Shown piece by piece: positions 27,476 through 44,626 of a DNA stretch of 44,862 bases; position 1 is the stretch's first letter, and each line of letters opens with the position of its first letter. Under the pieces are notes generated by a model that was not told where the DNA came from, searched no databases, and saw only the letters and a program-made list of their open reading frames with translations. The stretch is taken from the IMG/VR virus record IMGVR_UViG_3300049142_000086, positions 1 to 44,862 of that record; one strand, given 5' to 3'. The stretch comes from a virus. Taxonomy: Duplodnaviria; Caudoviricetes. Made by a program: the position numbers and the translations under genes.

Positions 27476-27874
27476 CTAGGCGGCGAGGCGGGTGTCGGTG
27501 CGCGTGAGGGGGCGGGTGGGGAGGTAGTCGCGGCCGAGTTCGCGGGCGATGAGCTGGGCTGCGCTACGGACCACGATGCCGCGCCCGGCGGGGGTTGTTG
27601 CCTCCGGCCGGTCCAGGACGAAGCCGATGCGGTGGCAGGTGTAGCTGATGATCCTGTCGACGAAGAAGGCGCGGGCGTCGCCGCGGAGGCGGCACATGGC
27701 GCGGACCTGGATGCGGCCGGCCTTGGTGGTGCGGATCTCGTAGGGCTCGATGGTGCGGATGGTCTCGGTGCCGTCGGTGTCGAGGTAGGTGATGGTGACG
27801 GCGTGCTGGCGGTCGATGGCGCGGTAGAGGTCGGTGAGGGTGCGGGTGGTGGTCTGGCGTGCGGTGAGCTTCAT
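27476..27874 (-). CDS. Stand-alone WYL-domain protein
   Basis: AIDRQHAVTITY...RTIEPYEI...AMCRLRGDARAFFVDRI matches the WYL consensus; no HTH or WCX domain. Confidence 0.85.
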   Translation of the reverse strand: MKLTARQTTTRTLTDLYRAIDRQHAVTITYLDTDGTETIRTIEPYEIRTTKAGRIQVRAMCRLRGDARAFFVDRIISYTCHRIGFVLDRPEATTPAGRGIVVRSAAQLIARELGRDYLPTRPLTRTDTRLAA

Positions 27875-27905: not shown

Positions 27906-27953
27906 ACTGTACCGCTCAAAGCATTGCAACACAATGCTCGAAGCGGCTATGGT
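27906..27953. promoter_or_regulatory. Back-to-back promoters overlapping a symmetric operator
   Basis: Operator CCGCT-N3-AGCATTG-N5-CAATGCT-N3-AGCGG; rightward promoter TTGCAA-N18-TATGGT, leftward TTGTGT-N17-TACAGT. Confidence 0.8.
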
Positions 27954-28106: not shown

Positions 28107-28928
28107 ATGGCAGGCTCCATCCGCGCCCGCGCCGCCAGTGCCGTCGCCAAGCTGAAGCAGCACGGCGACCACGACGAGGCAGCAGCCATCGAGTCGTTGC
28201 TTGCCCCCCGTGGCTACCTGCTGCTGAAGCGCACCGAGGAAGGGGAGACCAGTCCTCTGTCCTTGACGGTGACGGCCGACCTGAAGAAGGCGCTGACCGA
28301 CGCGGCCGAGGAGTTCGATGTCGTGCTGGACAGCCTGGCCGAGGAGGCATACCGGCTGGTGCTGGCCGGTCAGTGGCTTCCGCCGGAGGCCGGCCGCAGC
28401 AAGGGCGGCCAGAAGGCGGTGTTGCAGGTGTCCGTCGACAGCCGGCTCCGCCAGGAGGTGCAGGCGAAGCTGTCGGGCCTGTCGCAGGAGGCCGGGTATC
28501 GGGTCGCGGAGTCGAACATCGTCCTGTCGCACATTTGCGAGGAGTTGGGCGTTGAGCGTCCGGGGTCGGTGAAGGCGGAGAGCCTGGAGATGCGGTTCCC
28601 GAAGTCGCTGGTGCAGCACTGGGAGCGGCAGGCTGAGGCTTGCGGCCAGTCGTTGCAGGAGATCGTCGAGGGCCGTATTCCGGCTCTGGTGGACGGGTCG
28701 TGGGTGCCGGAGCGGAACGCGTACCTGACGTCGTCGAAGCGCGGGCCGCGTGAGAAGAGTTGGTCGGAGTCGGAGCGGCAGCGGTTGTGGCTGCCGGTCG
28801 ACAAGGATTTGCTGGCGGACCTGCGGGCCAAGGCCGATGAGTTGTCGGCCGAGCTGGGTTACCTGGTGTATCCGGGTGCGGTGGTCCGCGCGATTCTGAC
28901 TGATCGGCTGGGTGAGCCGGCCGAGTAG
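28107..28928 (+). CDS. Tandem four-RHH DNA-binding protein (candidate repressor)
   Basis: SD GAAAGGA; four strand-helix-helix units (PLSLTV, VLQVSV, SLEMRF, RLWLPV) arranged as an internal duplication. Confidence 0.65.
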   Translation: MAGSIRARAASAVAKLKQHGDHDEAAAIESLLAPRGYLLLKRTEEGETSPLSLTVTADLKKALTDAAEEFDVVLDSLAEEAYRLVLAGQWLPPEAGRSKGGQKAVLQVSVDSRLRQEVQAKLSGLSQEAGYRVAESNIVLSHICEELGVERPGSVKAESLEMRFPKSLVQHWERQAEACGQSLQEIVEGRIPALVDGSWVPERNAYLTSSKRGPREKSWSESERQRLWLPVDKDLLADLRAKADELSAELGYLVYPGAVVRAILTDRLGEPAE

Positions 28929-29016
28929 CGGTTCCGGGCGGGCCGGCCTGGACGCCGACAACCAGTTCCCGGCCCTTTCGCCCATCAATCTCACTGAACA
29001 ACCTCAAGGAGACCTC

Positions 29017-29934
29017 ATGCCGCAGGGCATCGAGGCCCCCGCCAGCATCACGGCGGAGGGCCAGACCTCGCACACCCTTTTCCAGGCCGCCCGTCCGGCC
29101 AACACCTTCGGATACACCCGTGAGCAGCAGATCGAGGCGCTGCGCAAGCTGCGGGAGCCGTTCAAGCCTGAGGAGATCCGCTACCTGCCGCGGATTTGGT
29201 GCCGTGCGTGCAAGAGCGCTGGCTGGAGCGGCTGCCAGCAGCACCCGGTCAGCAAGTGCGGGAAGTGCAAGCAGAAAATGCCGCGGGATGGCCACATCGA
29301 CTTGGCGTACGTCGGGCATGCGGAGGCGACGAACCGGCTGCTGAACGTGGACCCGTTCTGGGACTGGGAGCCGCTGACCGTGGACGAGCGGGGTCTGCCG
29401 CAGGTCGACGGGTACCGCGGGTTGTGGATCCGGTTGACGGTGTGCGGGATGACCCGCCTCGGGTACGGGCACGCCGGCGACAAGACGGGTGGCGACGCGG
29501 TGAAGGAGGTCATCGGCGACGCGATCCGGAACGCGGGGATGCGGTTCGGGATGGCGCTGGATCTGTGGACGTCGTCGGACCTGGAGATCATCGAATCGGG
29601 CGGCGCGTCGCTGGACGACAGCACGTCGGGCGTACGGGCCGAGCCCTCTCGACAGGCCCCTGCCACGACCGCGTCCCGTAAGACGGCGGAGCCGACACAG
29701 GAGAAGGAGCGGCAGGAGTCGCGTGAGGAGGCGTTCGCGCGGCTGACGGAGCAGTACCGGAACTGCTGGGGCAACGCGCTGGCCCTGGCGCAGATCCGGC
29801 TGGAGGGGAAGAAGCTCGGGTTCTCCGGGGACCGGGTGCAGGGGCCGCCGCCGGAGTCGAAGTGGATGACGTTCGACGAGCTGCTTGAGTCCCGCATCAC
29901 CGAACTGTCCGGATCGGAGGGAAGGGCCGCATGA
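29017..29934 (+). CDS. Rad52/Sak-like single-strand annealing protein with a Cys/His insert
   Basis: LREPF...LAYVGHAEATNRLLNVDPFWDW...KEVIGDAIRNAGMRFGMALDLW. Confidence 0.8.
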   Translation: MPQGIEAPASITAEGQTSHTLFQAARPANTFGYTREQQIEALRKLREPFKPEEIRYLPRIWCRACKSAGWSGCQQHPVSKCGKCKQKMPRDGHIDLAYVGHAEATNRLLNVDPFWDWEPLTVDERGLPQVDGYRGLWIRLTVCGMTRLGYGHAGDKTGGDAVKEVIGDAIRNAGMRFGMALDLWTSSDLEIIESGGASLDDSTSGVRAEPSRQAPATTASRKTAEPTQEKERQESREEAFARLTEQYRNCWGNALALAQIRLEGKKLGFSGDRVQGPPPESKWMTFDELLESRITELSGSEGRAA

Positions 29935-34834: not shown

Positions 34835-34860
34835 CGAGTAGCTGAGGCGGGAGGTCCTGC

Positions 34861-35004
34861 CGCTCCCTTGCCGGGGAGCGCTTCCTCTACCGCCTGGGCC
34901 GTATCCCGGCTGGTGTTTGCCGACACCTTCCGAGCCTCACGGCCCTCGTACCACGGCCCGGATTGCCGTCCGAGCTAAGGCCCATCGGGTGCCACCCCGA
35001 GGGC
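34861..35004 (+). repeat. Array of hairpins with TTGCCG loops upstream of the replication gene
   Basis: CGCTCCC-TTGCCG-GGGAGCG, GGTGT-TTGCCG-ACACC and CGGA-TTGCCG-TCCG, plus TCGGG-TGCCAC-CCCGA. Confidence 0.8.
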
Positions 35005-35085
35005 GAGTGCTTCTTCCACCGAAGCGAACCACCCACCGAAGCGGGGGCCCTTTTGTGCTCCCGCGTTACCGGAAGCAGGTACATA

Positions 35086-36552
35086 GTGCCTCAGCGCACC
35101 CCGTCTTGTCAGCTTGGCAATCCCATGCCGGGCGATTCGCACCGTATGTCCCCCCTCCCGGGCGACACCCAGTGCCCCCAAACGCAACCCGACACGCCCA
35201 CCCACACCACCAAAACCGAACACGCAAACGAATCCGAGCACGGCACGCGGCTCCTGGTCACCACAGCCCACCAGTGGCTCCACACCACAACCGGCCGCAT
35301 CACCACCGACCCCCACTCCTGGATGACCGCCGTCCACTGGGTCACCGACCAGACCACCAAGGGCCACTACACGCCCACCCAGACCCACGGCCCGAAGTGG
35401 GGCCCCACCACCGTCGCCGTCGCCCAGGAGATCGCCGCGCTGAAGGAATGCCGGCCGTCCGTCGACTACCTCGCCCGCAAGTTGAAGATCAGCGCCCGCA
35501 CGGTGAAGTACCACCTCGCGATGCTCCGCGAGGTAGGGCTGCTGGTGTACCGGACCAAGGGCACCCGCCTCCGCGGCGAAGGCAACCGGGCATCCGTCTT
35601 CGAGCGGACCATCCCCGCCACGTTCGACGAAGCCATGGGAATCCGCACCATCGGCGAGGGTGCAACGCGCCGCCCCGTCGGCGCCGCACCGGAGTCCCGC
35701 AGCCTGCTCGGGAAGCTCGCGAAGAAGGCCGCCCGCAAGGCCCGCCGCCCCCGCCGCCGCACCCCCGCTCCCGACCAGCAGCGTTGCACCCTAATGCAGG
35801 GGGGTACTACTCGCACTTCTTCTGCGGCTGGTACTCACTTCCCCCCTGAGGCAGAGCTCGCAAGCGGGAAAGCCAAGTCCCCCACCCCCAAGTCGTCGAA
35901 GCGCAAGCCGCGGACCCTGAACAAGGTCGGCCGCCGCTACCAGCTCGCCGGCGAACTCATCGCCCGCGTTCCGTGGCTGAAGGGGGCCTCCCGATCCCGC
36001 ATCGCGTGGATCGTCCGCCACGTCGCCGACGCCGGCTGGACCACCCTCGAAGTCCAGGCCGCAGCCGAACGCATCGTCTCCGACAAGGAACCGCGCCGCC
36101 CGTCCGCCGTCCTCGCGTACCGGCTCGCGTCCTGCCACCTGCTGTACACCACCCCCGAGCGGCGCCGGGTCCTGGTGGAGGACTGGCAGGACTCCCGCCG
36201 CGCCCAGCAGACCCGCCACGCCAAGCACGCCTTCCAGTACCTCGGCACCGGCCCCCGCAGCATCGCCGCCCGCCGCGCCGTGGACGAGGCGTTCGCCGCC
36301 ATCCAGGCCCGCCTCGCCCCCGCCGTGGAGGAACCCGCCGACCAGGCGCCACTGATGCTCGAGGACCTCACCAAGGACGAGATCGTCGCCCTGCGCCTGG
36401 ACGCCATGAGGGACCCGGCGCTGATCCTGTCCGCGCTCGAGCTGCTCGGCGAACGCGACACCCGCCGCCTGTACACCAACCGCCTCGTCGACCAGACCCT
36501 CGCCCTCGAGACCATCCACGCCCGCCGCGACACCCTCGCCCCCGCCTTCTGA
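35086..36552 (+). CDS. Probable replication initiator (winged HTH)
   Basis: CRPSVDYLARKLKISARTVKYHLAMLREVGLL HTH typical of phage/plasmid initiators; start uncertain. Confidence 0.7.
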   Translation: MPQRTPSCQLGNPMPGDSHRMSPLPGDTQCPQTQPDTPTHTTKTEHANESEHGTRLLVTTAHQWLHTTTGRITTDPHSWMTAVHWVTDQTTKGHYTPTQTHGPKWGPTTVAVAQEIAALKECRPSVDYLARKLKISARTVKYHLAMLREVGLLVYRTKGTRLRGEGNRASVFERTIPATFDEAMGIRTIGEGATRRPVGAAPESRSLLGKLAKKAARKARRPRRRTPAPDQQRCTLMQGGTTRTSSAAGTHFPPEAELASGKAKSPTPKSSKRKPRTLNKVGRRYQLAGELIARVPWLKGASRSRIAWIVRHVADAGWTTLEVQAAAERIVSDKEPRRPSAVLAYRLASCHLLYTTPERRRVLVEDWQDSRRAQQTRHAKHAFQYLGTGPRSIAARRAVDEAFAAIQARLAPAVEEPADQAPLMLEDLTKDEIVALRLDAMRDPALILSALELLGERDTRRLYTNRLVDQTLALETIHARRDTLAPAF

Positions 36553-39148: not shown

Positions 39149-40078
39149 CTACTGGGCTGATGCCGCCAACTCCTTCATTAGCTGCTCCACCGCCCGCTGG
39201 AGATCCTCCGCCTCACGCCGAGCCCGCTCCGGATCCTTCTGCGCCAACTCGCGCAGCCTCGTAACCACCTGCACCGACTCACTGGACTGTGCCGCCGACC
39301 GCGTCGTCTCCAGCGCGGGCTTCACCGGCTCCTTCTCCAAGACAGGCGTGAGTTCCTTGGGAGGCGCATACCCGAGAAAGTTCGCCGCCTCCTTGAGAGA
39401 AGTGTCCGTGACGCTGCCGTGCCGGGCAGCCTCCAGCCACGTCGCCCGCACCGCTTCGGTGCCATGCGTATCCAGGATCGGAACCAGCACCCGCAGTGGG
39501 CGCTCCTTCAACTCCTGAGTGGTGATGTCCTCGAGGGCCTGGGCAACCCCCAGCACACGGATGATGTTGTTCGCCTGGTGCTTCTTGATGTTGAAGCGGG
39601 CCGCGGTCATCTCACCGAAGGTGTCGTAACCCGCCGTCTTGTGGAGCTCCTCTTTTTTGAGGGCCCTCAGCCGCAGACCGAGACCGATCAGCCGCTGCTG
39701 CTCCGCGCGCTCGTGGTTCGCGCGGGCCGCGTACTGCACTGCCATGATGCCGCGGGAGTAGAACTCCAGCCGCTCCTGCGGGTCGCTGCTTTCTGGCTCG
39801 GTGAACTCCGGCATGGGCAGGTAGCCCGACGGCCGGGCAGCGGGAGCAGCCGTCGCGGTGACAGCTCCGTTGGCCACTGCGGGTTCAGCCGTCGGCGCGG
39901 GTGCGGCAGGCGCAGCCGCTGCGGGAGCCGGCACAGCAGGCGCCGCGGCTGCCTGCCTTCGCTTCGCCTGCTCCTCCTCCCACTTCCGCATCTGTTCCTC
40001 ACGGCCCCCGCCCGCAGCGGCCCCAGCGCCAGCGACGACCGGGATGACGGGCGCCTCCTTCGGCTTGTACTTGCTCAC
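39149..40078 (-). CDS. ParA partner protein (non-canonical ParB-like)
   Basis: Coupled to parA by GTGA; basic N-tail, Ala/Pro linker, LHKTAGYDTFGEM...FNIKKHQANNII HTH-like core and a C-terminal coiled coil. Confidence 0.7.
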   Translation of the reverse strand: MSKYKPKEAPVIPVVAGAGAAAGGGREEQMRKWEEEQAKRRQAAAAPAVPAPAAAAPAAPAPTAEPAVANGAVTATAAPAARPSGYLPMPEFTEPESSDPQERLEFYSRGIMAVQYAARANHERAEQQRLIGLGLRLRALKKEELHKTAGYDTFGEMTAARFNIKKHQANNIIRVLGVAQALEDITTQELKERPLRVLVPILDTHGTEAVRATWLEAARHGSVTDTSLKEAANFLGYAPPKELTPVLEKEPVKPALETTRSAAQSSESVQVVTRLRELAQKDPERARREAEDLQRAVEQLMKELAASAQ

Positions 40079-41220
40079 GCCGTCAGCTCCTTTGCCAGCG
40101 TGCGCATGACCTCCGCCTGAGGCGAGTCAGGCGCGTAGTCCAGCAGCGGCACCTCGTAGTCGGACGCCTCCCGGCCCTCGATGGCGTCCTTCAACGTGGC
40201 CAGCGTGCCGGGCGTAGTGAGCTCGTTCCACCCGTCGTAGAAGGCCCGTGTCACAGTGCCCTTGCGGGAGTCGTAGGCGTTGACGACGAACCCCAGTTGG
40301 TCGACGACAACACCCGTACGCCGCTCCACGGCCTCGATCTGCCTGTTCAGCAAGTTGTAGGCATTGAAGCTGGCCTTGTCCGACCACACCGGGATGAGGA
40401 TCCCTGACCGCTCGATCAGCTCGCCCGGCCGGCGCTGCACGTAGTGGATGGCCAGATCCATGGCCAGGCCCAGGTTGGGCGGACCGTCCAGGACGATGAC
40501 GTCGTAGTCCTGCTCGATCGGGGCGAGGGCGTTGATGAGGGCGCGGTCGCGGCCGATCTGCATGACCGCAAGTTCCGCATCCATCAGGAAGGCGTCCTGG
40601 TCCGCGGGCAGCACGTGGAGCCGGCCACCGAACCGGTCGTGGGGAAGCGCGACGAGAGACCGGGCGATGTGGCGTTCGGCCTTGCCGGTCATGTGCCGCA
40701 GCAGGCTCTCCCCGCCTTCGGGAACGCCCTCGATCTTCAGTCGTGCTGAGAGGTGCCCCTGGGGGTCGTAGTCGACAAGGAGGACTCGCTTGCCGGACTC
40801 GGCGCAAGCCTGGGCCAGTCCGGAGGACACGAACGTCTTACCGACACCGCCTTTCTGGTTGCCGACCAGGATCCGCTGAACGGGCTGCTCGGTCAGCCGC
40901 TGCTCAGGGGAGGGGTAGGCGTCCAGCCACAGGGTGATGGCCTGGGCCATGCCCTGCACCTTGGTGATGCCGCGCTGCTCGCATGCATCAGTGAACCGTC
41001 CGGGCAGGCCGAGGGGGAGGTACACGCCCCACGACTTTGCCCTCTTGACGTCGACATCTGGGGCAGCGGGCGTCTCGAGCCACAGGTTGATCGCCGAGGC
41101 GGCGGCGTCCTGCATGTTCAGGCCGTGCTCTGCGGCACGGATCCGCAGGTCGCGCCGGAGGTCCGGCGTCAGATTGACGAGCAGTTTTTCGCGTGATGAA
41201 TCCGCGCTTGGGTGGGTCAT
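40075..41220 (-). CDS. parA: ParA-family ATPase with two N-terminal RHH-like units
   Basis: Deviant Walker A KGGVGKT, DYDPQG and DGPPNLG. Confidence 0.93.
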   Translation of the reverse strand: MTHPSADSSREKLLVNLTPDLRRDLRIRAAEHGLNMQDAAASAINLWLETPAAPDVDVKRAKSWGVYLPLGLPGRFTDACEQRGITKVQGMAQAITLWLDAYPSPEQRLTEQPVQRILVGNQKGGVGKTFVSSGLAQACAESGKRVLLVDYDPQGHLSARLKIEGVPEGGESLLRHMTGKAERHIARSLVALPHDRFGGRLHVLPADQDAFLMDAELAVMQIGRDRALINALAPIEQDYDVIVLDGPPNLGLAMDLAIHYVQRRPGELIERSGILIPVWSDKASFNAYNLLNRQIEAVERRTGVVVDQLGFVVNAYDSRKGTVTRAFYDGWNELTTPGTLATLKDAIEGREASDYEVPLLDYAPDSPQAEVMRTLAKELTA

Positions 41221-41406
41221 GGCGAGCAAATTACCAGTCGATCACTGTGTGGGAGCCCACCGGGCCGCCGACAAGGAGACGGTTCACGCGAAGAGAGCAG
41301 AGCCATGCCGGAACTGACCGAACCGACCAGGCCCTGGCTCTACCCCGTGACGAGTTCCGCGACTAGACTCGCGTCGTCTGACGAGCATGCACTCGTGAGG
41401 TCTCAA

Positions 41407-41466
41407 GCCCCCACATCAGGTCCCCGGGCGTTGTCGGCAACACCGCCCCGCCTTGATGCTGGGGGC
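41407..41466. other. Long hairpin with a TGTCGGCAACA apex (candidate regulatory RNA)
   Basis: GCCCCCA/TGGGGGC, CATCA/TGATG and GGGCG/CGCCC stems; TAGACT -10-like box at 41364-41369. Confidence 0.45.
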
Positions 41467-41711
41467 GTCCGCGTTCCCGGGGCATACCACCGCGGGTACC
41501 AGTGAGTAACGGATCGCGCCATCTCCGTCACGGAATCAGTCACGGGCTGGTGAAAAGTCGGCTCGGCGTTACCCACCTACGGAAAACGGTGCCACAGTAG
41601 GGCTTCCCCTCAATGTGGACTGGCAGCCACCCCAGGGGCGCAGACCCGTCACCCGACCACTGGCGGGCCCGCGGACCTTCCCACATCTGCCGGAGGAGCG
41701 GAGACGCCCCC

Positions 41712-42110
41712 ATGCCCGCAGCGGAGCCGGCCGACCCCACACCGCCCACGACCCCCATCAGCGTCGAGGGCGCGGCCGTGATCCCCATCCGTGCGCGCCG
41801 CGCAGGCCGCGGCGCCCCTCACAGGGGGTGGAACCCCATGGACACCCGACCCACCCCAGGCCCGGCCGGCCAGCCCGGCAGCCAGCCCGACGAGGTCCTG
41901 GCCCTGCTCGCCGACGACATGGAAAAGGCGTTCAATGCGATCGGGCGCAGCCTCACCAACGACGAGACCGCGGCCGTGTACGCACGGACCCTGGCCCTCG
42001 TGGAGCACACGCTGCGCGGCGCCGCCGCCACCGGCATCCTCACCGAGGAGCAGCGACAGGCCCTCGCCGAGCTGATCGACGGCATGGCGCAGGCACCGCG
42101 GTTCGTGTAA
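41712..42110 (+). CDS. Hypothetical protein
   Basis: SD GGAGGAG/GGAGA; helical C-domain; start uncertain. Confidence 0.6.
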   Translation: MPAAEPADPTPPTTPISVEGAAVIPIRARRAGRGAPHRGWNPMDTRPTPGPAGQPGSQPDEVLALLADDMEKAFNAIGRSLTNDETAAVYARTLALVEHTLRGAAATGILTEEQRQALAELIDGMAQAPRFV

Positions 42111-42362: not shown

Positions 42363-42917
42363 ATGACGTATGGGGACAACACCAACACCGCACGGGACAC
42401 CGCAGCCAAACGACTGCGCCATCTGCACGAGTACTACCTCAAGCACCCGGTCACCGGCCCCACACCAAGGCGCCCCCCCACCAGCAGCGCCTCCGCGCCG
42501 CTGAACCTCGCCACCCTGAGCCACATCCAGGCATCCGTCCGCGAAGTCACGGAGCTCACGCGCGCCGCCAACCCCGACGCCGGCCCCGCACCGTCCCGCC
42601 CCGAAGCGGTCTACGACTGGTGCCGCCAGCAGACCGAGCACGCCGACGAGACCACCCAGCAACGGCTCGAGGCCATCGAGTACCGGCACTACCTCGAGCA
42701 CGCCATCCGCGCCGGCGACAAGAAAGTGGTCCGCAGACACCGCTGCCCCGAATGCCGCACCTGGGGCCTGATGTGGGACACGAGCAGCCAGCGAGTCCTG
42801 TGCACCAACAGCGAGTGCGTCGACCACGACGGCTTCTCCACGACCTTCACCCTCGGTCGCCTCGCGCACGAGCACGTGACGGCAAGGAAGGATCTTCGGC
42901 AGGCGCGTACAACCTGA
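42363..42917 (+). CDS. Zinc-ribbon protein (possible transcription regulator)
   Basis: CPEC...CTNSEC; 184 aa; TTGACA upstream at 42175-42180. Confidence 0.7.
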   Translation: MTYGDNTNTARDTAAKRLRHLHEYYLKHPVTGPTPRRPPTSSASAPLNLATLSHIQASVREVTELTRAANPDAGPAPSRPEAVYDWCRQQTEHADETTQQRLEAIEYRHYLEHAIRAGDKKVVRRHRCPECRTWGLMWDTSSQRVLCTNSECVDHDGFSTTFTLGRLAHEHVTARKDLRQARTT

Positions 42918-43343: not shown

Positions 43344-43381
43344 TGAGCATTGCCACCCAATGCTCATAGCGGTACGGTGGA
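43344..43381 (+). promoter_or_regulatory. Second copy of the operator/promoter
   Basis: TGAGCATTG-N5-CAATGCTCA overlapping TTGCCA-N17-TACGGT. Confidence 0.8.
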
Positions 43382-43449: not shown

Positions 43450-43785
43450 GTGGCCGTGATGACGCACGCCTCCGCACGCCTCGAAACCGACTACAACACC
43501 CTCCCGGCCCCCATCCAGGACGCCTTCGACCAGCTCATGCAGCAGGCCGACACCGCCGGCACCCACCAGCACTACTTCGAGCTCATGGCCCGCGCCGCCA
43601 GCCTCATCGGCATGCCGCTCCCCGCCAGCGGCGACATCCGGCGCTGCGCCTGCTCCTGCGTCTGCGGCTGCATCTTCGACGCCGAGGACCCCGACGCGCA
43701 CGTCATCGAGTGGACCGGCGGCTACAACCTCGGCCGCATCCAGTGCCCCACCTGCTACGACCGCCACCCCGAAACGGAGTTCTGA
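43450..43785 (+). CDS. Cys-rich hypothetical protein
   Basis: CACSCVCGC...CPTC; first gene after the promoter. Confidence 0.7.
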   Translation: MAVMTHASARLETDYNTLPAPIQDAFDQLMQQADTAGTHQHYFELMARAASLIGMPLPASGDIRRCACSCVCGCIFDAEDPDAHVIEWTGGYNLGRIQCPTCYDRHPETEF

Positions 43786-44123: not shown

Positions 44124-44203
44124 CCCACCCCAAGTCCTGCCCGGCCGCGCGTGAAGCCGACACCGCGCGGCCGGGCGGCACAACCCCAGCAGGGAGCCAC
44201 CAC

Positions 44204-44626
44204 ATGAACACCACCGCCTACGACCTCCACGTGATGGCCGCCTACGTGAACCTGCACGGCCTCCACACCGGCAACCAGTTCGCCGCCCCCGACGACCAAC
44301 TGGACATCTGCGCCATCGCCTACGTCGTCGCCGAAGACTGCCCCGCTCCGCCCGAGTTCTACACCGACGAGATCGCCTCCCTCCGCCTCATCGAGTCCAG
44401 CGCCCGCGCCATGGCCGCCATCCGCGCCATCAGCGACGCCCTCGACACCGACCCCTGCGAAACCGAGATCGCCCCCGGCCACACCATCCCCGACTACATC
44501 GAGCACGTCTCCAACTGGGCCGCCACCCCGCCCATCGGCGCCACCAAGCCGCCGTCCACCAGCGAAGTCATCGGACGCATCCTCCGCGCCGCCCAGGCCC
44601 TCGACACCCAGACCACCGCCGCCTGA
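44204..44626 (+). CDS. Divergent DUF6197-like paralogue
   Basis: MAAYVNLHGLH...DICAIAY...VSNW...SEVIGRILRAA. Confidence 0.65.
   Translation: MNTTAYDLHVMAAYVNLHGLHTGNQFAAPDDQLDICAIAYVVAEDCPAPPEFYTDEIASLRLIESSARAMAAIRAISDALDTDPCETEIAPGHTIPDYIEHVSNWAATPPIGATKPPSTSEVIGRILRAAQALDTQTTAA

Follow-up and report, generated by a model that had tools for sequence, protein, structure and literature searches.

Which RNA, if any, is made from the intergenic hairpin upstream of parA in certain Streptomyces phage-plasmids, and with what does it pair? The question is raised by IMG/VR record IMGVR_UViG_3300049142_000086, a 44.9-kb virus record (44,862 nucleotides (nt), analysed at full length and termed here the window), whose genes include those for capsid, tail-fibre, amidase, integrase, annealase, methylase, WhiB-like, rep-like and ParA proteins. 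A preliminary description of this DNA, made from its letters alone, had proposed that the hairpin belongs to a trans-acting antisense RNA directed at loops in the leader of the rep gene. The analysis reported here points to a conserved Streptomyces phage-plasmid small RNA (sRNA) gene, the product of which likely pairs in trans with the leader of the annealase gene at two sites and would thereby prevent translation; this interpretation, which is drawn from sequence comparison, is held with moderate confidence. Conservation extends to the promoter box, both pairing segments ('seeds') of the sRNA and both sites in the leader, and several lineages have lost them jointly.

The window is part of a phage-plasmid of the pZL12/pSAM1/pSLE1 type: it combines capsid, tail and lysis genes with rep and parAB in the gene order of that family of plasmid-phages. 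Its nearest relatives are circular Streptomyces elements of 85-94 kb, among them pSLE1, pSAM1, pCQ3 and pCQ4, as well as pZL12; all five resemble it in gene order and proteins, and pSLE1 is described, in the sections available of PMC4487206, as highly syntenic to pZL12. Relatives were gathered through protein searches, plus one plasmid through a search with parA and intergenic DNA; the plasmid set consists of 22 records and pZL12, a subset of the matches, and two of the 22 lack phage genes around rep. No RNA feature is listed at the position of the sRNA in the relatives' records that were retrieved (RNA genes are absent altogether from the plasmid tables), and no description of this sRNA was found in the literature on these elements, where subscription papers and supplements may bear on its novelty; the main text of PMC4487206 contains neither 'antisense' nor 'small RNA'. 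Nor do searchable papers describe how pZL12-type Streptomyces phage-plasmids keep their lytic and early genes off.

The small-RNA unit and its two seeds

The unit was defined from alignments of 26 intergenic regions and of 39 loop-selected units. On the plus strand it comprises, in this order, a -10 box, a short 5' hairpin, a first seed (termed a') and a long stem of variable sequence tipped by a second seed (b'). The box, TAGACT at 41364-41369, lies 43 nt upstream of the long stem, in agreement with the roughly 40 nt given in the preliminary description; across 47 elements it reads TACAAT (29), TAGACT (13) or TACACT (5). The predicted RNA, about 100-105 nt long, occupies 41376-41475, as judged from the alignments and, for its ends, from steps in read depth at a homolog identical to pSAM1 (locus L141, discussed below). 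No canonical -35 box precedes it, and a generic scan of the window copy for sigma-70 promoters and terminators returned neither.

Seed a' (CGTGAGGTCTC, 41394-41404), the 3' part of which is largely unpaired, has the core CGUGAGGUCUC within the unit; the near-invariant stretch across the alignments is TGAGGTCTC, and GAGGTC is invariant in all 39 aligned units. The long 3' stem-loop (41407-41466) is the hairpin of about 60 nt already noticed, with the apex then reported: it spans 60 nt, carries GTTGTCGGCAACACC from 41430 at its apex, closes with GGGGGC, and folds at -36.1 kcal/mol (z -3.4), a value that none of 200 shuffles equalled. At this apex stands seed b' (GTTGTCGGCAA, core GUUGUCGGC, 41430-41440), within which TTGTCGG is invariant in 39/39 aligned units, a set preselected for TGTCGG. 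The mean unpaired probability is 0.78 for b' (35 elements) and 0.52 for a'.

A profile of the sRNA matches the window at E 5e-17, the window itself being part of the model. Outside the family, neither the other parA loci nor L244 and L246, two non-phage plasmids that share the rep, gave a strong match. Scores above 40 bits were obtained in 8 of 100 further viral and in 17 of 100 metagenome motif loci; among 23 strong matches that were inspected, nine adjoin family proteins and the remainder are mostly too short to judge.

The annealase leader as predicted target

Both seeds find complements before the gene for a single-strand annealing protein (29017-29934, plus strand; phrog_3290, E 4e-49), which is the predicted target and heads the downstream early genes (a C5 methylase, a WhiB-like protein and an adenine methylase, then rep). 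Site b is the loop GCCGACAAC of a leader hairpin at 28954-28962, with a mean unpaired probability of 0.85. Site a, GAGACCTCATG at 29009-29019, runs from the 3' end of the Shine-Dalgarno (SD) sequence through the start codon and matches a' over 11 base pairs (bp); within it GAGACCTCA, at 29009-29017, is the window's only exact plus-strand complement of a' and ends at the A of the annealase start codon. Site a follows loop b by 46 nt. The order b-then-a on the mRNA is antiparallel to a'-then-b' on the sRNA; the target lies 12.4 kb away. The preliminary description had recognised the complement in loop b, along with TTGCCG in three rep-leader loops and GCCGACACC at 44156-44164, and all of these do lie in loops; it missed seed a' and the site over the annealase start codon. 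Its proposal of a trans-acting plus-strand RNA that would pair through short seeds is supported for the annealase-leader loop and not for those of the rep leader.

Single words of this kind are unremarkable in DNA of 69% GC: GCCGACA has 20 matches in the window against 14 expected, and 7 of 100 shuffles hold as many. What exceeds chance is the conservation across relatives and the two-site match, of which simulated windows yield 0.047 each, a rate that refers to 7+7 two-site matches. In a two-seed scan the annealase site ranks best after the sRNA's own opposite strand (-35.4 kcal/mol versus -32.4 for the next).

Sites b and a persist whether the gene behind them carries a Rad52-, Bet-, ERF- or ATPase-type annotation. 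The annealase gene itself is replaced by unrelated types in relatives, in which its first codons and the flanking control sequences stay. All 11 positions of a'/a are paired in 31 of 40 elements, and compatible changes comprise U-A to C-G in L090/L261, G.U to A-U in L258/L174, and G.U to G-C in L092/L097. An extra ACCTCA just before the SD (window 28995-29008), found in 16 of 47 leaders, could offer a' a second landing site.

For co-occurrence, target positions were taken from DNA profiles or annotated starts, and loci from motif scans were excluded from the tables, as were L004, L006, L008 and L082 (target outside the locus), L104 and L105 (no promoter match), duplicates, and the L251/L250 pair, which has both b' and b. 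Among the 42 protein-selected elements with both loci, b' and b occur together in 31, b' alone in two, b alone in two and neither in seven (Fisher p 4e-5, kinship not corrected); scored by core words, the same classes hold 34, 1, 0 and 7. Near-copies are present among the 42, which reduce to 33 upon de-duplication. The seven losses represent seven separate changes on a protein tree of 40 rows, in scattered lineages. Because the 5' hairpin, together with the promoter and leader motifs further downstream, is retained in all seven loss elements, the loss is specific. The co-variation of loop and target among relatives that the preliminary description had proposed as a check appears here as joint loss of b' and b; between b', which stays unchanged, and the variable rep-leader loops it is lacking.

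The named plasmids illustrate this pattern, in that pSLE1, pSAM1, pCQ3 and pCQ4 have the small RNA and both annealase-leader sites, as does the window, whereas pZL12 has the promoter box and 5' hairpin but neither a', b' nor site b. In seedless elements (L263, which is pZL12, L247, L240, L003 and L096) a C-rich stretch, CCCAC(A)CCC, comes after the promoter and 5' hairpin, and pZL12 and L247 add to it a short hairpin ending in a U-tract; such elements would encode a shorter type of RNA.

By the mechanism proposed here, loop b' would kiss loop b first, after which a' would zip up 11 bp over the end of the SD and the start codon. No U-tract accompanies the leader hairpin, and the sequence after it is rich in C (429 C versus 108 G in the 22 nt before the SD, over 47 leaders), a composition that would suit Rho once translation stops; an untranslated C-rich leader would hence favour Rho termination or decay. 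In the plasmid state this would silence the annealase, methylase and WhiB early genes and leave the upstream gene on. That gene (28107-28928, plus strand) may be a repressor, as a lead only: its Atlas features lie near Arc/RHH clusters (0.86-0.88, under the 0.9 line), its protein has no Pfam family and no detectable likeness to its pSAM1 counterpart, and a single-sequence structure model was unusable (pLDDT 42.7). A palindrome, GCATTGC-N4-CAATGC, occurs in two promoter regions (27921-27937 and 43347-43363; 6 matches versus 0.75 expected), that is, before the upstream gene and before the open reading frame (ORF) at 43450; similar words precede relatives' homologs of the latter, and these are likely operators. 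Divergent from the putative repressor gene is a stand-alone WYL-domain gene (27476-27874, minus strand), common in the family.

Transcription at a pSAM1-identical locus

Locus L141, identical to pSAM1 over 1501 nt, served as an expression proxy for the sRNA locus. Raw reads from six runs of two studies were placed on it (16 of 22 listed runs are indexed as containing the locus), and strand was assigned by reference to the flanking genes, the reads of which are in the first-mate-plus column. Steps at both predicted ends of the sRNA appear on the predicted strand in three short-insert runs from one study (X17, X18 and X19): just past the U-run depth rises from 0 to 8-10, from 118 to 195-221 and from 139 to 201-229, respectively, and in the bin after the -10 box it falls from 9 to 3.6, from 131 to 62 and from 174 to 107. 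Four X17 reads end at L141:9960. These data support, without proving, a discrete RNA of about 105 nt; the sRNA unit is real and conserved, and probably expressed. The plus-strand transcript that the preliminary description called for is matched by these steps, in one study, alongside opposite-strand RNA of equal or greater depth. That opposite-strand RNA spans the whole sRNA locus (L141:9860-10401), is strong in X22, X18 and X19 and piles up at the parB terminator; it is a possible sponge.

On the side of the target, all 37 pSAM1 libraries have 5- to 103-fold (median 27) more reads per base for the gene upstream of the leader than for the methylase that follows bet, and the same upstream gene stands a median of 68-fold above the WhiB-like gene in 37 libraries (both PMC11302927, supplement file 18); no row for bet was found there, and the drop can be placed only between these genes. 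According to the part of PMC11302927 that was available, virions contain almost no pSAM1 DNA.

Two neighbouring features were observed along the way. Just upstream of the sRNA promoter (L141:10154-10253) lies another discrete RNA, 90-100 nt long and present in greater amounts than the sRNA; its motif TCGCAGCC occurs at the same place in 26 loci (some of them duplicates) and is not in the window, and a G>A difference at L141:10245 is best read as adapter mis-alignment. On the other side, at window 41593-41712, there is a second conserved promoter (CACAGT) with a leader whose loop CTGGCAG matches CTGCCGG/CTGCCAG just before an SD sequence, suggesting a possible pseudoknot or translational switch; this promoter is active in the pSAM1-identical locus, where 5' ends pile up inside the loop at L141:9810. 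A viral search with the protein of the ORF at 42363 gave no match.

Rival readings and known antisense systems

Several observations weigh against repression of the annealase leader by a plus-strand sRNA. With regard to structure, the minus strand of the hairpin at 41407-41466 folds equally well (z -3.4), and across units the plus strand folds better in 21 of 39, i.e., the strands are alike; the U/C-rich tail that follows GGGGGC in many relatives is missing from the window copy, which has no U-tract; and RNAalifold on a MAFFT alignment did not recover a consensus long stem, for which reason the RNA model is sequence-only and support for the stem comes from single-sequence folding. With regard to co-evolution, L262 retains the sRNA without site b (its CCGAC lies outside the loop), and of the phylogenetically independent pairs five agree, none opposes and one shows no difference, which at p 0.0625 falls short. 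The sole double change in a'/a, shared by the sisters L090/L261, counts as one event and also fits the internal hairpin. There are no compensatory or switched b'/b pairs: variants lose the motif, and in 6 of 7 their own pairing is no better than cross pairing. Site a, moreover, is partly constrained as SD and start codon, being kept in 4 of the 7 loss elements. With regard to expression, depth in X18 and X19 declines gradually, and in no run did an end of the sRNA pass the pile-up threshold; the three runs of the second study reach a depth of only 2-11x, leaving the signal to a single study; opposite-strand RNA without such steps is of similar depth in X18 and X19 and deeper in X22 (58-70x versus 2-10x); and the leader hairpin alone could cause the drop in pSAM1 expression.

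Some of these same observations are what one would expect if the opposite-strand RNA were the functional product, which carries b-then-a as the annealase leader does and could act as a decoy for a motif-binding protein or as a sponge for the plus-strand RNA: its abundance, its pile-up at the parB terminator, the like folding of the two strands and the co-loss of the motifs, which is predicted equally well. Yet the conserved -10 box and the U/C-rich tail are on the plus strand, the steps at the ends of the unit occur on that strand only, and the variation among G.U, A-U and G-C at one a'/a position favours pairing over recognition by a protein; this alternative is accordingly unlikely, albeit the least so of those considered. 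Another possible partner is the transcript driven by the promoter ahead of the ORF at 43450, the main target then being its first bases (GCCGACAAC). GCCGACA(AC) comes directly after a -10 box upstream of 43450 homologs (e.g., in L085 and L241), with GCCGACA at this place in 21 of 34 elements with b' and in none of 7 without it; but the site is absent from 13 of the 34, including the window, its link to b' fails a kinship control (0.8 of 6 pairs) and there is no 11-bp a site. We regard this as improbable for the main target, and a secondary target in one clade as more likely. The window also has the b-like GCCGACACC in the plus-strand loop at 44156-44164, before the ORF at 44204, a near match, as the preliminary description held, which is lineage-restricted and without a good a site.

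Replication control through the rep leader, the target originally favoured, draws on a real match within the window: TTGCCG lies in hairpin loops at 34868, 34917 and 34963 (hairpins at 34862-34975, plus strand), b' matches all three, over 9 nt at hairpin 2 (TTGCCGACA, 34917-34925), and the CCTCACG that follows is a partial match to a', the cofold gain being -5.3 versus -7.3 kcal/mol for the annealase leader. Local cross-talk between sRNA and rep leader may accordingly exist in this window, as far as folding models go. As a target, however, these loops are not conserved. Of 45 rep leaders, 3 contain TTGCCG and 1 contains GCCGACA; most have TTGGC(G), CGCCAA or CTGCCA/GTGCCA, with one word used uniformly within an element and different words between elements, while b' remains near-invariant. 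In pSLE1, whose RNA region is 90.5% identical, the loops read TTGGCG. All 45 leaders have in addition a minus-strand counter-promoter motif (CTGACAAG-N-GCACTATG, taken from the alignment; window 35082-35112), which points to a cis antisense RNA. The rep-leader target is given a slightly smaller chance than the 43450 transcript, and the rep leader likely has its own cis antisense control, a copy-number or incompatibility system. Within 34840-35112 several hairpins share one loop word and a terminator-like stem stands before rep. An sRNA that pairs with the annealase leader in order to activate or stabilise it is slightly less probable again: binding at b could conceivably remodel the leader hairpin, but a' covers the 3' end of the SD and the start codon, and the downstream genes are low in 37/37 pSAM1 libraries. 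The least credible possibility is a minus-strand target loop in the parA leader (the alternative offered in the preliminary description), or merely a terminator. The window's minus strand does read TTGCCGACAAC upstream of parA; but only 10 of 40 elements have a divergent parA of this kind ahead of the unit, and in the other 30 the unit keeps its position and strand where parAB has been replaced or inverted, a persistence by which this reading is largely refuted. Furthermore, parB in the pSAM1-identical locus already stops some 380 nt before, at a hairpin of its own, and a terminator has no need of invariant seeds. The parAB cassette (window 39149-41229) is replaced by unrelated types in relatives, and its flanking control sequences stay.

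Pairing of the sRNA with the annealase leader invites comparison with known antisense RNAs of phage-plasmids. C4 of P1 and P7 uses two short seeds to pair with two mRNA sites and so blocks translation, with polarity; it is tRNA-like, is processed by RNase P and sets P1/P7 specificity, with seed variation defining immunity groups. N15 CA is an antA-locus RNA of a P4-like immunity region, and CopA/CopT of R1 and Inc RNA/repZ of IncI-alpha are cis-encoded loop-kissing systems. These last resemble the rep leader of the window's type, with its UUGGCG/CGCCAA loop words and counter-promoter motif, rather than the sRNA. As in C4, the sRNA has two unpaired seeds antiparallel to two mRNA sites, judged here from sequence match and predicted accessibility only. 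It differs in that its predicted target is an annealase, and in that its seeds are near-invariant or lost, without switched pairs in seven variants, rather than defining immunity groups. The unit folds into two predicted hairpins, its 5' depth step comes just after the -10 box, and ARAGORN found no match in the sRNA. A search of the whole window against Rfam (E up to 1) returned one chance match, MIR168 (E 0.46), and no covariance match to C4, N15 CA or P4 CI.

C4 of P1/P7 (RF01695; target motif c4-a1b1) is likewise a phage-plasmid sRNA, needed for operon repression beyond the protein repressor, and it is located inside the operon that it represses, c4-icd-ant (both from the excerpts available of PMC8198154); the window sRNA lies 12.4 kb from its target with its own promoter box, and between target (28954-29019) and sRNA (41376-41475) parAB lies on the other strand. 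C4 is listed for Proteobacteria and their phages in the portion available of PMC2864571. P4 CI, in the passages available of PMC4825925, pairs with two sites and stops downstream early genes in the lysogen, as proposed for the sRNA; unlike the sRNA, it is cut from the transcript that it controls and pairs with seqA and seqC flanking itself, whereas the window sRNA has no flanking a or b site on its own transcript except a lone GCCGACA at 41267, upstream of the promoter, and the sRNA is dispensable in some lineages. From these comparisons, the sRNA appears to work like P1 C4 and P4 CI without being a member of either group, from which it departs in model match, location and specificity.

Seeds that are either shared or lost cannot set immunity groups, and an RNA lost in this way is not essential in every lineage; the sRNA would be a modulator, not an essential immunity switch. 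The immunity role suggested earlier by analogy is, as regards specificity, unlikely, the seeds being invariant and absent from pZL12. Tentatively, and as a possibility more than an expectation, the sRNA might have evolved independently as the actinobacterial equivalent of C4/CI. As a free-standing RNA acting in trans through two seeds, it would cut a repressor-first operon after its first gene and hold the genes for recombination and methylation off during plasmid life; an opposite-strand sponge would gate it, and the seeds shared across the family would let it act on superinfecting relatives as well. The finding provides a named RNA with an exact predicted two-site target; pSAM1, which carries the RNA, is transcribed in public data, and pZL12 is a natural minus control. 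It would also offer a compact 11+9-nt RNA repressor/leader pair for Streptomyces engineering. If true, it would mean convergence on C4/CI logic outside the Proteobacteria.
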